Of a stretch of 12,847 nt of DNA, positions 1 through 9,304 are shown piece by piece. Under the pieces are notes generated by a model. The model saw only the letters and a program-made list of their open reading frames with translations, was not told the origin of the DNA and searched no databases. The DNA is taken from assembly GCA_004524535.1 (NCBI GenBank), contig SDNY01000103.1:1-12847 (forward strand). Reading direction: 5' to 3'. A program made the position numbers and the translations under genes. The DNA comes from Promethearchaeota archaeon. Its GTDB lineage: Archaea > Asgardarchaeota > Lokiarchaeia > Sigyniarchaeales > SOKP01. How positions within the stretch are numbered: the first letter of the stretch is position 1; each line of letters starts with the position of its first letter.

Positions 1-2
1 GT

Positions 3-266
3 TTTGAGAAAACATTGAGAATTCTTCATGATAACCCTGAAATCAAGACAGAAAAGGAACTCTTTACGGAATTAAAGAAAGAATCTTACCATAACGCTTA
101 TTATCGGGTAAAACCACAGATGATTGAACATGGTTTGATTAAGGTAAAGAATAAATCAATTGAGCTTACCGAAAAAGGAGAAACCGCGTATTTATTATTA
201 AAGGCTTTAATTGATGAAACAGACGGAATAAATGAAGAAAAGGAAAGTAATGGAATTTATACTTAA
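3..266 (+). CDS. Winged helix-turn-helix DNA-binding protein (probably 5'-truncated by the window edge)
   Basis: C-terminal 'MIEHGLIKVKNKSIELTEKG' matches the (L)xxxGLI...LTxKG wing motif of MarR/ArsR-like wHTH proteins. The frame is open from nt 3 (FEKT-LRIL), so the TTG at 15 may not be the true start. Confidence 0.7.
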   Translation, partial: FEKTLRILHDNPEIKTEKELFTELKKESYHNAYYRVKPQMIEHGLIKVKNKSIELTEKGETAYLLLKALIDETDGINEEKESNGIYT

Positions 267-302
267 ATTGAATAAAATTCAAATTAGACAAGTGATAATA
301 AA

Positions 303-1484
303 ATGGTTGAAGCAGAAAAAAATTATGATTGGGCAGGGTTAGCGAAAAAAGGAGAGCAAGATAAAGAACTTAAGGAAAAGCTCAACACCCTACTTTTTTC
401 CTATGATGATAAATCATCCTCCTCAATTTTCGTAAGTAAGACCAACACCTTCCAGAAAAAGTTCTCAAGCGAAATAAATTCCAAATTAGACACCATTTTC
501 GCAGAACATCCATCTATTAAGCCAAAGGAAATTGCTCAGAGAAAGAAAAGTTTTTTAAAAAGACTAAATGAGAAATTGAATTTACTGATAAATAAGAAAG
601 CATTTTGCAAAATCACCCTACCTTCTTATCCTATCCATAAATTCTTTGAAGCCTTTAGCTCAATAATTGATGAGATAGAGTTTCTTCCTACAAAAGACTA
701 CATTAAAATAAGGGCAATGGATCCAAGTAGAATATGCTTGATCCATGTTTCAATTAAAAGCGAGAATTATCAATTTTTCAGAGAGGGTAAATTAGGCATA
801 AACCTTGACGACTTACAAAAGCTTATTAAATGTAATAGCACCGATAATTCTCAAACAACCTTGATTTTTGCGGAAGATCGCCTTTATATAACTATTAACT
901 CCAGAAAATATAATTCTAATATCAACAGAACTTTAATCTCCTTAGATACGGATATGGAAGAAATACCCTTAGAAACCCTTTTGGAAATAAATTATCCTTC
1001 TGAATTTTCGATCTCTCCTTCCAAATTAGATTATGTTTTAAGGAATATGGATTTATATAGCGAGATTATAACGATTAAGGTAAAACCGAATGAAATTAGT
1101 TTCACGGAGGAAGGGCAGTTGGGGACGGGAAGCATTAAATGGGAGAAAAACAAAATCAAACGCCTTCATTTTAATTTAAGTCATATTAAAGAAGAACTTA
1201 AAAATGAAAATTTATCCAATAGCAATAAAACCTTATTGGAGAATATTTTAGAGAAAAAAGAAATCTCTAGTGCGTATTCTTACACTTTTATAAAACAAGT
1301 AAGTAATATGTCTAAAATATTGGGTAAAGGCGAGACCGTGGATTTTAGTTTGAAGACCGACCACCCCTTAAAAGCTTATATGAGGTTTAAGGATTTAGAT
1401 AACAGCGAAATGATGTTTTTCCTTGCGTGTCGCCCCGAAGAAGCTGAGTATGACGGAGATGATGACGATATAGATGATTTTTAA
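303..1484 (+). CDS. pcn: PCNA (DNA sliding clamp) homolog with N-terminal extension, internal insertion and acidic tail
   Basis: From about aa 101 the PCNA motifs appear in order: IKIRAMDPSRICLI, KLGINLDDLQKLIK, SAYSYTFI, DHPL, FFLACR (canonically LAPR/LAPK). An SD-like GTGAT (292-296) lies 6 nt before ATG 303. Confidence 0.9.
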   Translation: MVEAEKNYDWAGLAKKGEQDKELKEKLNTLLFSYDDKSSSSIFVSKTNTFQKKFSSEINSKLDTIFAEHPSIKPKEIAQRKKSFLKRLNEKLNLLINKKAFCKITLPSYPIHKFFEAFSSIIDEIEFLPTKDYIKIRAMDPSRICLIHVSIKSENYQFFREGKLGINLDDLQKLIKCNSTDNSQTTLIFAEDRLYITINSRKYNSNINRTLISLDTDMEEIPLETLLEINYPSEFSISPSKLDYVLRNMDLYSEIITIKVKPNEISFTEEGQLGTGSIKWEKNKIKRLHFNLSHIKEELKNENLSNSNKTLLENILEKKEISSAYSYTFIKQVSNMSKILGKGETVDFSLKTDHPLKAYMRFKDLDNSEMMFFLACRPEEAEYDGDDDDIDDF

Positions 1485-1485
1485 C

Positions 1486-1514
1486 CTTTTTTTTTATTTC
1501 TATTTTTCTATTTT
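1486..1514 (+). terminator. Oligo-T archaeal-type terminator after the PCNA gene
   Basis: A T10 run followed by TATTTTTCTATTTT begins directly after the stop codon. Confidence 0.6.
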
Positions 1515-1648
1515 AATTGGTAATCCTTGCTTATTCTTTTTTTTTCTGTGGGCTTTAAATATTTTTGTCTAAAATAAGGGTTAGCAGTCATTCTAACAAA
1601 ATGGTTCAAAAAAACCAACTTGACATAATGATTGCTTATTTTTTTTAT

Positions 1649-1810
1649 CTAATTAGAATGTTTAGAACCTATCAACATTTTTTTACACTCTTTTTTTACT
1701 CTGATCTCCCCATAAGGATAATTCAGAGCATTCCAGATTTTCCCTCTAAGGAAAGCTCTGATTAGGTTTAACGAATTGTCGAGTAATTGAAACCTAACAA
1801 AAGCAACCAT
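1649..1810 (-). CDS. Putative 53-aa basic hypothetical protein (not in the ORF track)
   Basis: The ATG at 1810 directly abuts the TGA of the 1811..2020 ORF. Translation: MVAFVRFQLLDNSLNLIRAFLRGKIWNALNYPYGEIRVKKECKKMLIGSKHSN. No recognisable motif. Confidence 0.35.
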   Translation of the reverse strand: MVAFVRFQLLDNSLNLIRAFLRGKIWNALNYPYGEIRVKKECKKMLIGSKHSN

Positions 1811-2020
1811 TCATTCTATCGACAAATAAATAATATACCCTTGTTGTATTCCTTTTATTTCTATGATTTTATCTAGGGTATCGTGTTCGTCTTGGGTAAA
1901 ATCAACAAACTCCTCAAGAGTTTTAATTCCCGAAACAAAGGATTCTTTATTTTTATACACAAAGGTTATACTTGTGTTTTTACCTTGTAGTTTAATTCCC
2001 ATAGTATCATTAACTGGCAT
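1811..2020 (-). CDS. Hypothetical protein, 69 aa
   Basis: ATG start, globular-protein composition, no competing long ORF. A TATA-like TATTTATT lies about 25-30 nt upstream on the minus strand, so it may be leaderless. Confidence 0.6.
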   Translation of the reverse strand: MPVNDTMGIKLQGKNTSITFVYKNKESFVSGIKTLEEFVDFTQDEHDTLDKIIEIKGIQQGYIIYLSIE

Positions 2021-2049
2021 ACTACTAAGGAATTAACTCACAAATAAAT

Positions 2050-2122
2050 AGATTTACCGACTGGTGATTTAGTGATTTTTCCTATTCCCACACCAGAAGA
2101 GATTTATCCTATATAGATTTAG
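2050..2122. repeat. Two copies of AGATTTA-N9-GATTTAG (candidate operator or iteron array)
   Basis: GATTTA occurs at 2051, 2066, 2101 and 2116: 15 bp apart within each pair and 50 bp between pairs. It lies between divergent genes. Confidence 0.55.
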
Positions 2123-2266
2123 ATTGCTTAAATTTTATATGTAAAAAGATACACCACAAATAACAAATCCTTTACTCTCTTTGATTATAAATTAGCGTAT
2201 TTCCTTTATTATTTCAATCAACAAGAATCTTAAATCAAAAAAAACCAAAACAAGAGTGATAAAAGA

Positions 2267-2725
2267 ATGGTTAACACCCCCAAGAGATGTGACAATAGAT
2301 ATTGCAATCTCAAACCAGAATATAGGATTTCCTATCCAAACGGAGAGATTTTTTTTCGTTGTGCCCATCATATAGCACCTTACCAAATTGAGAGAGATAA
2401 TGATAATTGCATGATCGAATCTCTTATATTTGATGAAAGCTGGATAACCGAGTTTGAGGAATCCTCAGAAATAATTAGTTGGTTAAACCGATTCATCGAA
2501 GAGAAGAGACTGGAGGATAAAATCATAGAGTTTTTTGACGACAACCACATGCATCACCTTATGCCCATTAAAGTAATCACTGAAATGTTTGAGAGCTTAA
2601 GTCTTGCCAACCAAAAGAAGATTAAAGATAAACTGGTAGTTATCGACTATCATAACGGGAATGTAACGCATTTCTTTGGGTATATCGGGAAATGCTTAAT
2701 AAAGTCAATCCAAGAGGGAGAGTGA
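2267..2725 (+). CDS. Hypothetical protein with N-terminal Zn-finger (C-x4-C-x18-C-x2-H)
   Basis: CDNRYC...FFRCAHH at the N terminus. An SD-like GTGAT (2256-2260) lies 6 nt before the ATG. The helical C-terminal part (WLNRFIEEK...QKKIKDKLVVIDYHNGNVTHFF) recalls small phage/MGE hypothetical proteins (recollection, unverified). Confidence 0.8.
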   Translation: MVNTPKRCDNRYCNLKPEYRISYPNGEIFFRCAHHIAPYQIERDNDNCMIESLIFDESWITEFEESSEIISWLNRFIEEKRLEDKIIEFFDDNHMHHLMPIKVITEMFESLSLANQKKIKDKLVVIDYHNGNVTHFFGYIGKCLIKSIQEGE

Positions 2726-2902
2726 ATGAAACAAATGGAATCCAAGCCTAAAGCAAAAGTGAAAGACTTACAGCATTTTTTAAAGGAAGCTTACAAGCAT
2801 GGAACGATCACCTGCCCCGAATGTTTTAACCGAATAGAACCCGACGCTAAGAAATGTTCATGCGACTGGAAGAATCCTTTAAGGCAATTCGGACTAATAT
2901 AA
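2726..2902 (+). CDS. 58-aa Zn-ribbon protein (not in the ORF track)
   Basis: The ATG abuts the upstream TGA and is preceded by purine-rich GAGGGAG. Translation MKQMESKPKAKVKDLQHFLKEAYKHGTITCPECFNRIEPDAKKCSCDWKNPLRQFGLI contains CPEC-x10-CxC. A T-tract follows the stop. Confidence 0.8.
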   Translation: MKQMESKPKAKVKDLQHFLKEAYKHGTITCPECFNRIEPDAKKCSCDWKNPLRQFGLI

Positions 2903-2903
2903 T

Positions 2904-2945
2904 CCTATTTTATATTTTTTCTTTTTTTTTTACTTTTTATTTATT
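2904..2945 (+). terminator. Oligo-T terminator after the Zn-finger gene pair
   Basis: Several T runs (T6, T10, T5) directly after the stop at 2902. Confidence 0.6.
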
Positions 2946-3095
2946 AATTCTTCCCAAAATCAAAAATTTGTCAATCTATTTTCATTTTTAACCAAAGAAA
3001 AACACTCAATCCATGTAAAGATTAAAAAACAATAAAAATATAAACCACAAAAATATAACTTCAATGAAAGATATAAAGATTTAGGTGATATTCAC

Positions 3096-3758
3096 ATTCT
3101 AACCGATCAAGAAATTGACGATATAAGTAAGAAAATGGTTCGGTATTTTGTTCCCATTGACGCCACCGACCTTTATAAAATCATGGTGAAAGACGACCAT
3201 CCAATTTTATGCAGTCTTATATGTCGTGCAGAGTATAAGGAGAATAAAGATAATCAATTTCTACTTACGCATGTTCTTTTAGCTATGGATGGAATCGCAT
3301 TCCAAAAGCTTGGTAAAAATCAGTTTTATTATTGGTATTCACGCCCTGAGAACGAAATCATTTTTGGGAAACAAAAGATAACCGTTGACGGAGTTCAAAT
3401 ATTAGTAGATGATGCTTTAAACAAGCCGTTTAGATTTGAGAAAATACAAGATGTTATTTCTCCGATTTATTCTGATGAGGATTTCAAGACAATTCAAAAC
3501 AATTTTTCCGCATTCTGTAAAATAATTTCTAATACATTTAAAACTTTAAATCAAGAAACATTTAAATACGCTAGAGATGTTGAATATCTAAGGAGTGGCA
3601 TTACTGAAATCGGTATTAACGATTTTATCGATGTGATTCGCACAAGTTATAACGCTGGTTTTAAAAAAGAAGTGCGATTAATTGTTGAGAAAGCCTTAGA
3701 ACTAACAACTAAAGAAGAGAAGAAAAGTCTTTTAAAATTTAGTTCTAAAATATCATAA
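3096..3758 (+). CDS. Hypothetical protein, possibly PH-like N-terminal domain (start ATT 3096 or ATG 3135)
   Basis: 207-aa ORF from ATG 3135, with the frame open upstream to 3036. A strong SD AGGTGAT (3083-3089) sits 6 nt before ATT 3096. The beta-rich ILCSLICRAEY...THVLLAMDGIAF...YYWY segment followed by a helix suggests a PH-like fold (inference). Confidence 0.75.
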   Translation: MLTDQEIDDISKKMVRYFVPIDATDLYKIMVKDDHPILCSLICRAEYKENKDNQFLLTHVLLAMDGIAFQKLGKNQFYYWYSRPENEIIFGKQKITVDGVQILVDDALNKPFRFEKIQDVISPIYSDEDFKTIQNNFSAFCKIISNTFKTLNQETFKYARDVEYLRSGITEIGINDFIDVIRTSYNAGFKKEVRLIVEKALELTTKEEKKSLLKFSSKIS

Positions 3759-3763
3759 TTTTT

Positions 3764-3901
3764 TTAGTTAAAACCGTATTCTCTCGTAATAATTCCTTCA
3801 TAGTCTTCACTGAGAATAATTCTTGCCGATACGGCTTTTTCCTGACTAAATAAGAATGGAGGAATTTCTATCTTTCCCGCAATTGTGTAAAGCTTGAATA
3901 T
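3764..3901 (-). CDS. Putative 45-aa protein with ATA start (not in the ORF track)
   Basis: The minus strand reads GAGGTTGATTAATT-ATA TTC AAG..., giving (M)FKLYTIAGKIEIPPFLFSQEKAVSARIILSEDYEGIITREYGFN*. It has an SD-like GAGGT and converges tightly on the stop at 3758. Confidence 0.45.
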   Translation of the reverse strand: MFKLYTIAGKIEIPPFLFSQEKAVSARIILSEDYEGIITREYGFN

Positions 3902-4099
3902 AATTAATCAACCTCTTAATCTGAGCGCTCTCCTCAGAGCCTATTGGTATAGATTCTAAAAATTAATATAAACACTGAAAATTAATAGTCCTTTAAACTG
4001 ATTTATTTATATAAATTGTTAAATATATGATAGAATTAATATTTTGTGATTTATCTTGATTATTTTATGCCCCAAATTATAAATTAAATCAATCTGATG

Positions 4100-5993: not shown

Positions 5994-6836
5994 ATGAAAG
6001 AATTAATTGATGAATTAAAAAATATTAAGTTAGCGATTTTTGACTTGGATGGTGTAGTTTACAGAGGAAATACCTTAATCCCGAACGCTGATAAAGTTAT
6101 TCAAGATTTAAAAGATCTATCTATTAAAGTTGTATATAATTCTAATAACTCAACAAATACGAGACTTAAATATGTTGAGAGATTGAAAGGCTTTAACATT
6201 CCAAGTGAACTTTCAGACTTTTATACAAGCGCTTCAATCACTTCGGCTGAGATATCAAAAATAAAAAAAAATGCCAACATTTTTATAATCGGAGAGAGTG
6301 GTTTGCGAGAGGAATTAAAATCATTAGGCCATAATATTATAAAGGATCCCCCTAAATACGAAGATATAGATTTTGTAATAGTAGGGCTTGATAGAAATTT
6401 TAATTATCAAAATTTATCTATTGCTCAAAAATGTATTTTGGAGGGGAACGCACAATTCTATGCAACTAATGCAGATTCGACTTTACCAGTTGCCCGAGGT
6501 TTAAAACCAGGGGCTGGTGTTATGGTCAATGCCGTAGAGACTTGTACAGGGAGAAAACCAGTTAAAATCTTTGGAAAACCAGAACCTTATGGAATAAATC
6601 TTATTTTAAAAGATTTCAATATCCTTCCTAACCAAGTTTGCATTATTGGAGATAGACTTAATACAGATATACTAGCAGGAAACCGCGCAGGAATAATAAC
6701 TATTGCTGTTTTAACAGGGATTACTTCAAATGTAGAAATTGAAGAAATGATAAAAAAGTCAAAAGAGAATCAAATTGAGGATCAAAATCTCCTGCCTAAT
6801 ATTGTGTTAAATACTTTAGAAGAGATTTTCATTTAA
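5994..6836 (+). CDS. HAD-superfamily subfamily IIA hydrolase (NagD-like)
   Basis: Motif I FDLDGVVY, motif II SNNS, GKP and motif IV IGDRLNTDI. ATG 5994 is preferred over TTG 5952, which overlaps the upstream gene. Confidence 0.93.
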   Translation: MKELIDELKNIKLAIFDLDGVVYRGNTLIPNADKVIQDLKDLSIKVVYNSNNSTNTRLKYVERLKGFNIPSELSDFYTSASITSAEISKIKKNANIFIIGESGLREELKSLGHNIIKDPPKYEDIDFVIVGLDRNFNYQNLSIAQKCILEGNAQFYATNADSTLPVARGLKPGAGVMVNAVETCTGRKPVKIFGKPEPYGINLILKDFNILPNQVCIIGDRLNTDILAGNRAGIITIAVLTGITSNVEIEEMIKKSKENQIEDQNLLPNIVLNTLEEIFI

Positions 6837-8067
6837 TTTGTATTTTATTTCTAGTTTCTAAAGATAGTTCATTTTCCTCTGAATTCTCAATCTTAAAATC
6901 CTTGAATATCAAATAGACTAGGATTAGCATTAAAGATATAGGAAATAAACTTATTAAAAGCACATAAAAAATGTAACTTCTAATATCAGATATAAGGTTA
7001 GGTACTATAAAGTTAAATTGACTTTCGAAATAAAAGGGCCCAATTATTTGAAATATGAGTAAAATTAATGTAATTATCAGGATCAAAATTAAATAATTTC
7101 TTTGAAGCGGATTTTTGAGTAAATATAAGCTTATTGGGATAATTATAGGAAACCCTATAAAAAAAATACGGGAATAATTTACTGATAAAAAACCCAGTAG
7201 AAATATAAATGGTAGAAGGATTATTGAATTCTTCAAAAAACGATTTTCGATTTTTTTTAAATATAAATATAAAAAACTAATTAGCCATAAGACTCCAAAT
7301 GTTCGATAAAACATATAGGGATGATAGAAAAGCTTCCTATTAAAAAAGAACAAATTCAATCGTAAGACAAATACAATTCTAGAAAATGAAAAATAGATAT
7401 AATTAAAACCCATAATAAAACGAATTATTAGAAATACACTTATGGGAGGTATTGATATTAACAATGTAGATAGAATACTTGACCTTAGATCTTTTTCTTT
7501 AAGTTCCAAGAAAAAGAATAAAACTAAAGTAATTAAAAGAATTTCCTTATTTGCCGTTCCAATAGTTACACTAATAAGAAACAGTTTTTTATTTGAATCT
7601 AATAATGCATATAAAGCTAATAAAAAGAAGAAGAAGGTTAAGAAATCAACAAAACAGATATTTTGGAGAAGGTAAATATTTATTGGACTTATGATAAATA
7701 AAAATACACCACTCAAACTAATTGGAAAGCTAAATCCGATTTTTCTAAGAAAATAATAAAATAAAAGAGATGTAGCGTAAAATCCAGTTAAATTTACAAT
7801 AATAAATCCTATAAGGGTCTCAACTGGCAAAATTGCAACTAATAAGGGCGTTAATATTCTATACATGAAAATGGGTCTTCTATCTCTAAAATTAGAATCT
7901 ACCATAACATAATATATATGAGCATCACCTTCCGTACTTACCGTTAAGAATGGATGTATAAAAATCACGCCAATTATTATTATAGATAAAATTGTTAGGA
8001 AACACATTAGATTAAGTATAAAAAATTGAAATCTAGGTGAATCTTTGTTTATAATTCTAATGCTCAT
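6829..8067 (-). CDS. Polytopic membrane protein, GT-C-fold glycosyltransferase-like (paralog A)
   Basis: About 10-11 hydrophobic segments, D-xxx-Y in the first loop, YRILTP, NKE and a late-loop Arg (NYSR). This layout resembles PMT/ArnT-type GT-C enzymes; the function is inferred. Confidence 0.6.
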   Translation of the reverse strand: MSIRIINKDSPRFQFFILNLMCFLTILSIIIIGVIFIHPFLTVSTEGDAHIYYVMVDSNFRDRRPIFMYRILTPLLVAILPVETLIGFIIVNLTGFYATSLLFYYFLRKIGFSFPISLSGVFLFIISPINIYLLQNICFVDFLTFFFFLLALYALLDSNKKLFLISVTIGTANKEILLITLVLFFFLELKEKDLRSSILSTLLISIPPISVFLIIRFIMGFNYIYFSFSRIVFVLRLNLFFFNRKLFYHPYMFYRTFGVLWLISFLYLYLKKIENRFLKNSIILLPFIFLLGFLSVNYSRIFFIGFPIIIPISLYLLKNPLQRNYLILILIITLILLIFQIIGPFYFESQFNFIVPNLISDIRSYIFYVLLISLFPISLMLILVYLIFKDFKIENSEENELSLETRNKIQIK

Positions 8068-8068
8068 T

Positions 8069-9304
8069 TTAAGTAATGGAATTTTTATTTCTATTCTCTA
8101 AATTTATTTCATTTTCCTCAGAATTCCTAATCTTTAAATCTTTGAATAGCAAATAGACTAGGATTAACATCAAATATATAGTGAATAAAGATGATAATAG
8201 CACATAATAAACATAACTTTCAAATTCAATTATAATTTTAGGTGTAGATCTGAAAAAATAAAGAGGACCAATTATTTGACTTATGAGTAAAATTAATGTA
8301 ATTATCAGGATCAAAATTAAATATTTTCTTTGAAGCGGATTTTTGAGTAAATATAAGCTTATTGGGATAATTATAGGAAAAGCTATAAAAATAGGACGGG
8401 TATAATCTATTGCAAAAAAACCCTGTAGAAATATGAATGGTAGAAGGATTATTGATTTCTTTAAAAAAGGATTTTCGATTTTTTTTGAATAGAAATATAA
8501 AAAACTAATCAGCCATAAGACTCCAAATGTTAGATAGAACATATACGGATGAAAGAAAATATTTATGTTGATAACATTCAAATGCCTTTGTAGAGTAATT
8601 ATGATTGTAATATGTGAATAATAGACCGCAATAAAATGCATAGTATAACGAATTATTAGGAATACACTTATAGGAGGTATTGATATTAACAATGTAGATA
8701 GAATACTTGACCTTAGATCTTTTTCTTTAAGTTCCAAGTAAAAAAATAAGACTAAAGTAATTAAAAGAGTTTCCTTATTTGCCGTTCCAATAGTTACACT
8801 AATAAGAAACAGTTTTTTATTTGAATCTAATAACGCATATAAAGCTAATAAAAAGAAGAAGAATGTTAAGAATTCAACAAAACAGATATGTTGGAGAAGG
8901 AAAATATTTACTGGACTTATAATAAATAAAAATACACCACTCAAACTAATTGTGAAGCTAAATCCGATTTTTCTAAGAAAATAATAAAATAAAAGGGATG
9001 TAGCGTAAAATCCAGTTAAATTTACAATTATAAATCCTATAAGAGTCTCAACTGGTAGAATTGCAACTAATAAGGGCGTTAATATTCTATACCTGAAAGG
9101 GATCCCTCCTTGCATAAGATTAATTTCTGCCATAAAATAATATTTATGCCCATCGTTTATTGGAACTACCGATAAGAATGGATGTATAAAAATTACGCCA
9201 ATTACTATTATAGATAGAATTGTTAGGAAACACATTAGATTAAGTATAAAAAATTGAAATCTCGGCGAATCCTTGTTTATATTCATTGTTCTAATACGTT
9301 TCAT
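8069..9304 (-). CDS. Polytopic membrane protein, GT-C-fold glycosyltransferase-like (paralog B)
   Basis: Tandem paralog of 6829..8067, separated by 1 nt. Motifs NDGHKY, PFRYRILTP, NKE and DYTR. Confidence 0.6.
   Translation of the reverse strand: MKRIRTMNINKDSPRFQFFILNLMCFLTILSIIVIGVIFIHPFLSVVPINDGHKYYFMAEINLMQGGIPFRYRILTPLLVAILPVETLIGFIIVNLTGFYATSLLFYYFLRKIGFSFTISLSGVFLFIISPVNIFLLQHICFVEFLTFFFFLLALYALLDSNKKLFLISVTIGTANKETLLITLVLFFYLELKEKDLRSSILSTLLISIPPISVFLIIRYTMHFIAVYYSHITIIITLQRHLNVININIFFHPYMFYLTFGVLWLISFLYFYSKKIENPFLKKSIILLPFIFLQGFFAIDYTRPIFIAFPIIIPISLYLLKNPLQRKYLILILIITLILLISQIIGPLYFFRSTPKIIIEFESYVYYVLLSSLFTIYLMLILVYLLFKDLKIRNSEENEINLENRNKNSIT

Follow-up and report, generated by a model that had tools for sequence, protein, structure and literature searches.

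A long PCNA in strain-specific DNA of an Asgard archaeon: a candidate accessory sliding clamp from a lineage-specific family

What is a PCNA of 393 amino acids doing in an archaeon that also has a canonical one? This question is raised by contig SDNY01000103.1 of a Promethearchaeota archaeon (assembly GCA_004524535.1). The whole contig (C45, 12,847 bp) is the window analyzed here, and it belongs to a genome of 3.66 Mb assembled in 198 contigs with 30.4% GC. The gene in question is the open reading frame (ORF) at positions 303–1484 of the forward strand, which encodes 393 aa plus a stop codon and was assigned from Pfam, alignment with solved PCNAs, an AlphaFold2 model and Foldseek. An earlier note had described a remodelled PCNA with two added segments and proposed that it was an element-borne clamp. 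The description was correct in all measurable points, because Pfam, alignments and model agree; the proposal is weighed below. Our preferred reading, held with moderate confidence, is that the gene encodes an accessory sliding clamp of a lineage-specific, fast-evolving family of long PCNAs, which arose from the PCNA type of the archaeon's own, Promethearchaeia-labelled family and which lies here in strain-specific inserted DNA.

The PCNA core of the protein is readily recognized. Pfam PCNA_N matches aa 112–219 with 41 bits (gathering cut-off 20.3), and PCNA_C matches aa 228–284 with 25.8 bits (cut-off 23), although the latter covers only positions 4–60 of the 128 in the profile. The rest of PCNA_C is split off by an insertion, and phmmer with solved PCNAs finds it again at aa 315–380; the solved PCNAs thus align with aa 113/114–276/279 and then with aa 315–380. 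In the AlphaFold2 model of the full protein (mean pLDDT 86.3, pTM 0.78), two similar beta-alpha-beta domains are joined by a connector loop, and Foldseek agrees. The best structural match is the PCNA of Thermococcus gammatolerans (7n5i_A), with a TM score of 0.88 (normalised to the target) and an rmsd of 2.4 Å over 284 columns, and further matches are to archaeal and eukaryotic PCNAs. Domain 1, the interdomain connector and the first half of domain 2 occupy aa 101–280 (603–1142, forward strand, as are all parts of the gene), and the remainder of domain 2 occupies aa 321–380 (1263–1442), as supported by the solved-PCNA alignment and the model. Both the connector and the ‘PR’ motif are kept. A disordered acidic C-terminal tail ending in F follows at 1443–1481 (pLDDT <50 for aa 381–393); it is of the same kind as the tails of the canonical PCNAs in the host family.

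The first addition is an N-terminal domain of 100 residues (303–602). The earlier note had placed the beginning of the PCNA fold at about aa 101, behind a charged, helical-looking extension, and the model bears this out: the first PCNA strand is aa 100–107, and aa 1–99 form three helices (10–32, 52–67 and 74–97) with a block pLDDT of 78–91. The domain alone was modelled at a block pLDDT of only 57–80, and this difference suggests that it packs on the PCNA core. Following a suggestion of the same note, we searched with the N-domain alone, and Foldseek gave no match at E≤0.001; the best VIA-align hits (Z 7.3) were unrelated helical proteins within the stated background of the tool, and aa 1–100 gave no usable match in the protein atlas. 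No canonical PIP-box or APIM motif was seen in it by eye. Judged from the model and these searches, the domain is without a recognisable known fold and is specific to the family.

The second addition lies in domain 2, where a charged, helical region of aa 281–320 (1143–1262) was delimited by alignments, model and composition. Between the anchor columns the window protein has 45 residues, compared with 18–20 in canonical PCNAs, so that the net gain is about 27, in good agreement with the roughly 28 extra residues counted before. The insertion is modelled as a strand (287–290) and two helices (293–299 and 306–318). The alignment places it between positions 175 and 189 of the PCNA from Pyrococcus furiosus, a site which we take to be the loop on the ring's back face that follows the interface strand of domain 2.

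We then asked how widely such proteins occur. A word-indexed search of 5.8 billion proteins returned only four long forms. When 1.84 billion cluster representatives were then searched with a profile built from the first 110 residues, 49 proteins were found at E≤1e-3, including 22 of 357–640 aa, 25 pieces of 61–314 aa and two very long ones. These two (902 and 4395 aa) match in a repeat-like manner by several short stretches each and were not counted as members. Weaker matches (E 1e-3 to 1e-2) in frames of about 325 and 760 aa were dropped as helical tails of unrelated proteins, namely an NTPase-like protein, with a P-loop motif by sequence reading, and a membrane protein. The final family set contains 29 full-length proteins: the window protein, 24 database proteins and four translated from genomes. 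Two of the database proteins, P0016 (NCBI, from a Promethearchaeia metagenome-assembled genome) and P0032 (JGI/IMG), are both labelled “hypothetical protein” in their sources.

All 29 members carry the N-domain, with a length of 94–125 aa, in which W10 and G17 hardly vary and hydrophobic residues occupy most of the other conserved positions. The domain-2 segment is far more variable, ranging from 19 to 282 aa among the 29 members compared with 18–20 in canonical PCNAs. Charged residues abound in the long insertions and Pro and Gly are scarce, a composition that suggests helical arms. In two of the members, P0040 (638 aa) and P0054 (640 aa), a charged-rich insertion of about 280 residues occupies the same site in domain 2. 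The acidic tail has been lost in about nine long members.

The distribution of the family is narrow and patchy. With the N-domain profile at E≤1e-6 we screened 399 genomes of the phylum and found the domain in ten, all of which belong to the window's own family (10 of 134 genomes), and it was absent from the 265 genomes of 32 other families. Full-length long genes are present in six genomes, with two copies in the genome under study (G000) and a single full-length match in each of G008, G012, G067, G111 and G127. The other four genomes (G046, G059, G103 and G105) hold only truncated remnants without the PCNA part.

The family also bears on where translation begins. The first start codon downstream of the in-frame stop at 285–287 is ATG 303, and, as had been noticed before, aa 2–100 include no Met and a Shine-Dalgarno-like GTGAT (292–296, forward strand) stands 6 nt 5' of this ATG, where it might act as a ribosome-binding site. 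A TTG at codon 92 can be read in the sequence, and a start near that position, which would have removed the extension from the protein, had been named as an alternative. It is ruled against: judged from sequence conservation, the extension is translated and is not a mis-called start, because it is present in 29/29 long members and because the Ka/Ks of this part between the two copies of the genome is 0.38. Three bases 3' of the stop codon, a run of nine T (1487–1495, forward strand) is a possible archaeal terminator.

A separate canonical gene, whose absence would have made the long form the only PCNA of the cell, is indeed present. The genome has three PCNA-type genes: a canonical one of 267 aa on contig C72, followed by PriL and PriS; the long form of the window; and a second long form on contig C65, which is 72% identical to the window copy. 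The flanks of the C72 gene, from their translations only, read as RNA polymerase and ribosomal protein genes. Over the core, the long form is 39–41% identical to the canonical PCNA of the same genome or family. The chromosomal PCNAs of relatives had also been named as a check on the extension, and none of the 19 compared from the same archaeal family has it; the 18 from relatives are 265–279 aa in length. As for the tails of these 18 canonical proteins, 14 are acidic and end in ...DEF, the rest end in EEF, DVY or EEY, and sister families differ; this acidic tail may be likened, by analogy, to the tail of a protein-binding hub. The genome also has three genes of the small-subunit type of RFC (Rep_fac_C). 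In two relatives there are further divergent PCNA paralogs of canonical length, of 273 and 282 aa (L061, G012:C121, and L030, G003:C137, respectively), and G012 therefore has three PCNA-type genes. The long form shows neither the near-universal presence nor the conserved synteny with replication genes of a housekeeping ortholog. Its presence in only a few genomes of one archaeal family and its location in inserted, strain-specific DNA make it a probable accessory clamp rather than the cell's replication clamp.

To trace the origin of the family, an alignment of the PCNA core with 69 rows and 259 columns was used for a maximum-likelihood tree (quick search); the columns of the extension, insertion and tail, as well as database fragments, were left out. 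The 29 long forms make up one clade with an SH-aLRT support of 100 on a long stem. This clade lies inside a 100-supported group together with the canonical PCNAs of the family and related metagenomic PCNAs, a group that excludes the PCNAs of three sister families. The tree does not settle in which order the long clade and the other PCNAs of this type branched. By this placement, with which the ‘...DEF’ tail common to long forms and canonical PCNAs of the family agrees, the long forms derive from the lineage's own PCNA type, either directly from a host gene or via an element-borne copy. A phylogeny with Asgard and viral PCNAs had been suggested earlier. When the PCNA of the 10H_0 plasmid was added, the single long clade remained, and the plasmid protein, of canonical length, grouped elsewhere with two metagenomic PCNAs.

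Long forms evolve fast, with terminal branches of 0.11–1.6 substitutions per column compared with 0.004–0.58 in canonical ones. The Ka/Ks of the two long copies in the genome is 0.17 overall, 0.38 in the N-domain, 0.36 in the insertion and 0.07–0.10 in the core; by these ratios, both copies are under purifying selection in all parts.

The setting of the gene was compared with four congeners (G008, G005, G002 and G001). Window 1–3768 is strain-specific DNA, the right-hand part of the proposed insertion, and holds a winged-helix ORF, the long PCNA gene and small multi-copy ORFs. Except for 118 nt with 72% identity in G008, it has no DNA match in the four congeners, and a control search against the genome itself gave its match. 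Synteny with G008, G002 and G005 starts at 3769, that with G001 starts at 4005, and the shared block from 3769 onward holds Roadblock, membrane and HAD genes. Left of the synteny point, the four congeners carry a block that is found here on contig C157 and ends in an Rpb7/RpoE'-like gene, which is complete on C157 (L080:5166–5744, SHS2_Rpb7-N and S1). In all four, the Rpb7-like and Roadblock genes are immediate neighbours; here strain-specific DNA sits between them, and the C157 DNA past the Rpb7-like gene has no DNA match in the four congeners. The first 135 nt of the Rpb7/RpoE'-like gene recur at 3769–3903 on the reverse strand as a partial duplicate; it is 88–90% identical to C157:14611–14745 and 93% identical to the single copy in G008, and the 56 nt next to it are 98% identical to G008. 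The simplest reading of these sequences is an insertion between the Rpb7-like and Roadblock genes, bounded by a 135-bp direct repeat of which 3769–3903 would be the right-hand copy. The insertion would include at least 6.3 kb on C157 and 3.8 kb on C45, with the long PCNA gene 2.3 kb from the right end. The C65 long copy likewise lies past the end of synteny with congeners.

The inserted DNA is repetitive. Window 21–3903 is a mosaic of stretches 74–95% identical to 15 other contigs of the genome, and the remainder of the window is unique except for two tandem genes and for stretches that weakly match GTPase paralogs on four other contigs. Independent contigs (those of the best-holding run) cover 306–1742 without mismatch and 3809 onward, with similar word depths of 48.4 and 51.2.

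On the preferred reading, that of an accessory clamp, the host RFC would load the long protein onto DNA, where it would form a ring of the PCNA type and keep the binding of PIP-type partners. The N-domain and the helical arm may then recruit a lineage- or element-specific partner, so that the clamp would serve the DNA transactions of the island or element, or of a conflict between host and element, rather than bulk replication.

Several findings weigh against this reading. First, a canonical consensus residue is found at only 31 of the 71 positions that are conserved in the long family, and some PCNA surfaces may for this reason be lost in long forms. Second, the comparison of homolog neighbourhoods that the earlier note had proposed did not reveal a common context: the seven full-length loci share no neighbour that BLASTP detects outside this genome, and only one of the seven, that of G008, lies in a recognisable defence island. 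Third, neither the window nor the part of the insertion assembled on C157 revealed a gene for an integrase, a replication initiator or a capsid. Fourth, the two ends of the insertion are on separate contigs (C157 and C45) with the interior not assembled, and the independent contigs do not bridge the repeats at 1742–3809, so that the link of the PCNA gene to the chromosome rests on the original assembly.

The loci themselves are diverse. That of G008 (L032, G008:C1:6500–23500) has the order N6-methyltransferase fragment, DISARM DrmD-type SNF2 helicase, McrB-like AAA+, McrC, long PCNA and GmrSD, and its long PCNA has 365 aa and is without the acidic tail. The long PCNA gene of G111 stands beside a ribosomal protein operon, that of G127 is near an ArdC-N-like gene, and that of G012 is near ORFs assigned, from translations only, as an NAD-type DNA ligase and RadA. 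Upstream winged-helix ORFs are found in the window, on C65, in G012 and in G103; they have no mutual BLASTP similarity, and we rejected them as evidence of a conserved gene pair with the PCNA.

The strongest rival, although we think it unlikely, is that an integrated virus or plasmid uses the protein as its own replication clamp, to capture host polymerases for its DNA, and that the extra domains bind a replication protein of the element. This is close to what the earlier note had proposed. The part of that proposal which concerns the DNA stood: the gene lies in DNA that is absent from four congeners and bounded by a direct repeat. It has dispersed multi-copy ORFs beside it, one of them matching a phage protein family, and the patchy distribution and decayed copies of the long form would also be expected of an element. 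PCNA genes have been reported from Asgard viruses and plasmids (PMC11529989; bioRxiv 10.1101/2021.07.29.453957). The other part, that of hallmark genes, relatives on viruses or plasmids and a shift in composition, found no support in the assembled DNA or in the collections searched. Pfam, PHROG and PADLOC scans of the tested window ORFs revealed no integrase, replication or capsid gene, and a tRNA scan no tRNA. Neither the window, the assembled C157 part nor the other six loci has an integrase, Orc/Cdc6, primase, MCM, capsid or terminase gene. The 50,697 phage records contained no relative, a search of IMG/VR with close patterns gave none either, and matches in the plasmid collection cover the core only; these collections hold few Asgard elements. 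The window bins of 20–37% GC resemble the genome as a whole, and the G111 homolog beside a ribosomal protein operon is not where this rival would place it.

Among known element-borne clamps, those of Asgard viruses and plasmids (plasmid 10H_0, LC711081.1; Skoll, Nidhogg and Opia) are near in kind, being like the long form extra copies tied to non-core DNA and of the same PCNA type. For Skoll, Nidhogg and Opia, which are named as PCNA-encoding viruses in PMC11529989, the likeness is drawn from this naming only. The 10H_0 PCNA differs in having 280 aa and no N-domain, in standing beside Orc/Cdc6 and TFB genes and in belonging to a separate clade, and it thus speaks against the clamp of the window being of that kind.

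Somewhat less probable still is a domesticated host clamp for repair or checkpoint functions, comparable in role to 9-1-1 or to the second PCNA that certain archaea possess, with new domains that recruit repair factors. It would accord with the derivation from the host family's own PCNA type, with purifying selection on all parts, with the acidic tail kept in most members and with the G012 copy near genes that read, in translation, as an NAD-type DNA ligase and RadA. But a domesticated repair gene would hardly be restricted to 10 of the 134 family genomes, in several of them as a remnant; both copies of this genome lie in strain-specific DNA, and no repair neighbour is conserved. A 9-1-1-type clamp consists of three distinct co-occurring subunits, whereas two copies of one long type are found here.

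That the protein forms no ring of its own, and instead enters mixed rings with the canonical PCNA or blocks its interface as a non-ring scaffold, modulating or poisoning host clamps, is improbable: the identity of about 40% to the host PCNA over the core, an insertion that begins right after the modelled strand which we take to be an interface strand, and the suggested packing of the better-modelled N-domain on the core are compatible with it, but nothing tested speaks directly for it, and R209 and L211 of the putative domain-1 interface strand are nearly invariant across long and canonical forms.

A wider and more tentative form of the accessory-clamp reading, which we consider doubtful, is that long PCNAs constitute a new class of conflict-associated clamps in Asgard archaea. 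Each would be a loaded ring whose N-terminal adaptor and arm (0 to about 264 extra residues) either tag or detect foreign DNA that is being replicated, on behalf of a defence effector, or enable the capture of the host replisome by an integrated element. If this holds, the rapid turnover, the variation in length, the decayed copies and the locations in islands or a defence island would be the marks of an arms race. The long PCNA does not register as a known anti-phage component; the only PADLOC match is one to PtuB, with 15 bits and an E value of 0.0035.

Compared with known clamps, the long form has the two-domain fold, the interdomain connector and the C-terminal ‘PR + acidic’ end of archaeal PCNAs (T. 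gammatolerans 7n5i; P. furiosus 1ge8/1iz4), at TM 0.86–0.88 (normalised to the target) and an rmsd of 2.4–2.8 Å. It differs from them in about 100 extra N-terminal residues and 27 more in domain 2, in an identity of only 21–23% and in its non-housekeeping character. With the canonical PCNA of the same genome (C72) it shares the ‘...D(E/D)F’ tail and the clade; the canonical PCNA of the family, however, is next to primase, slow-evolving and without both additions, while the long form is patchy and fast. Extra clamp paralogs are also known in Thermococcus kodakarensis (TK0582, 3lx2) and as PCNA1–3 of the Sulfolobales, but these are of canonical length, unlike the long form. TK0582, whose structure 3lx2 is among the structural matches of our model, presumably arrived with an integrated element. 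The PCNAs of giant viruses and E301R of ASFV, likewise among the structural matches, have a core with added segments (Terrestrivirus 402 aa, Medusavirus 431 aa, E301R 301 aa). Their TM scores normalised to the query stay at about 0.5–0.57, so that only the core matches, and there is no evidence that their additions are homologous to those of the long form.

In a recent survey (PMC12680538), which also mentions the heterotrimer of the Sulfolobales, Asgard PCNA is treated as a mostly single-copy core gene of the replisome. We found no description of the long family in the literature searched, which did not cover the supplementary tables of PMC12680538 and of Asgard mobile-element papers. A patchy, fast-evolving family of paralogs with a new N-domain and a variable arm would change the single-copy view, and its members amount to a series of naturally remodelled clamps for which partners can be sought; interest would be high if the conflict reading were true.

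The remaining features of the window are as follows. Directly upstream of the PCNA gene, a winged-helix ORF at 3–266 (forward strand) has its 5' end cut by the start of the contig. It gave only weak matches (HTH_45, E 0.0057; phrog_11046, transcriptional regulator, 5.4e-5) and has a 96% identical copy on C186. Downstream, an ORF of 152 aa (2267–2725, forward strand) belongs to a small multi-copy family and matches phrog_6004, of unknown function (E 3.7e-14). Its copies are on C188, C65, C191, C187 and C105, and its C-terminal part is also found downstream of the C65 long PCNA. An ORF of 207 aa without family match (3135–3758, forward strand) has copies on C73 (88%) and C19 (41%).

These and other small ORF families of window 1657–3903 are dispersed over the genome in 2–6 copies, often at contig ends (C188, C191, C73, C19, C52, C20, C165, C189, C137, C187, C90, C105 and C157). 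At some loci LRR or Ras-type GTPase genes lie within a few kb, and on C188 a copy splits a ribosomal protein operon. Two very long ORFs, of at least 1149 and at least 1448 aa, contain a prenyltransferase-type alpha-alpha toroid domain (L080 7551–11000, G000:C157, and L069 3–4346, G000:C73, respectively); that of C157 is in strain-specific DNA at the insertion boundary, and the C73 contig also carries the copy of the 207-aa ORF.

Beyond the insertion, two tandem paralogous multi-pass membrane proteins of 412 and 411 aa are encoded on the reverse strand at 6829–8067 and 8069–9304, with 86% DNA identity and no Pfam match. On the contig of the second long copy (L010 3702–6001, G000:C65), about 2.3 kb with two toxin-antitoxin-like pairs is absent from the syntenic loci of G008 and G002; judged by sequence, these ORFs are PIN-like with RHH- or AbrB-like partners. 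Finally, about 2.5 kb lies between the Roadblock and membrane genes in the closest relative, G008 (L096 7883–10352, G008:C6), where the window has about 70 bp.

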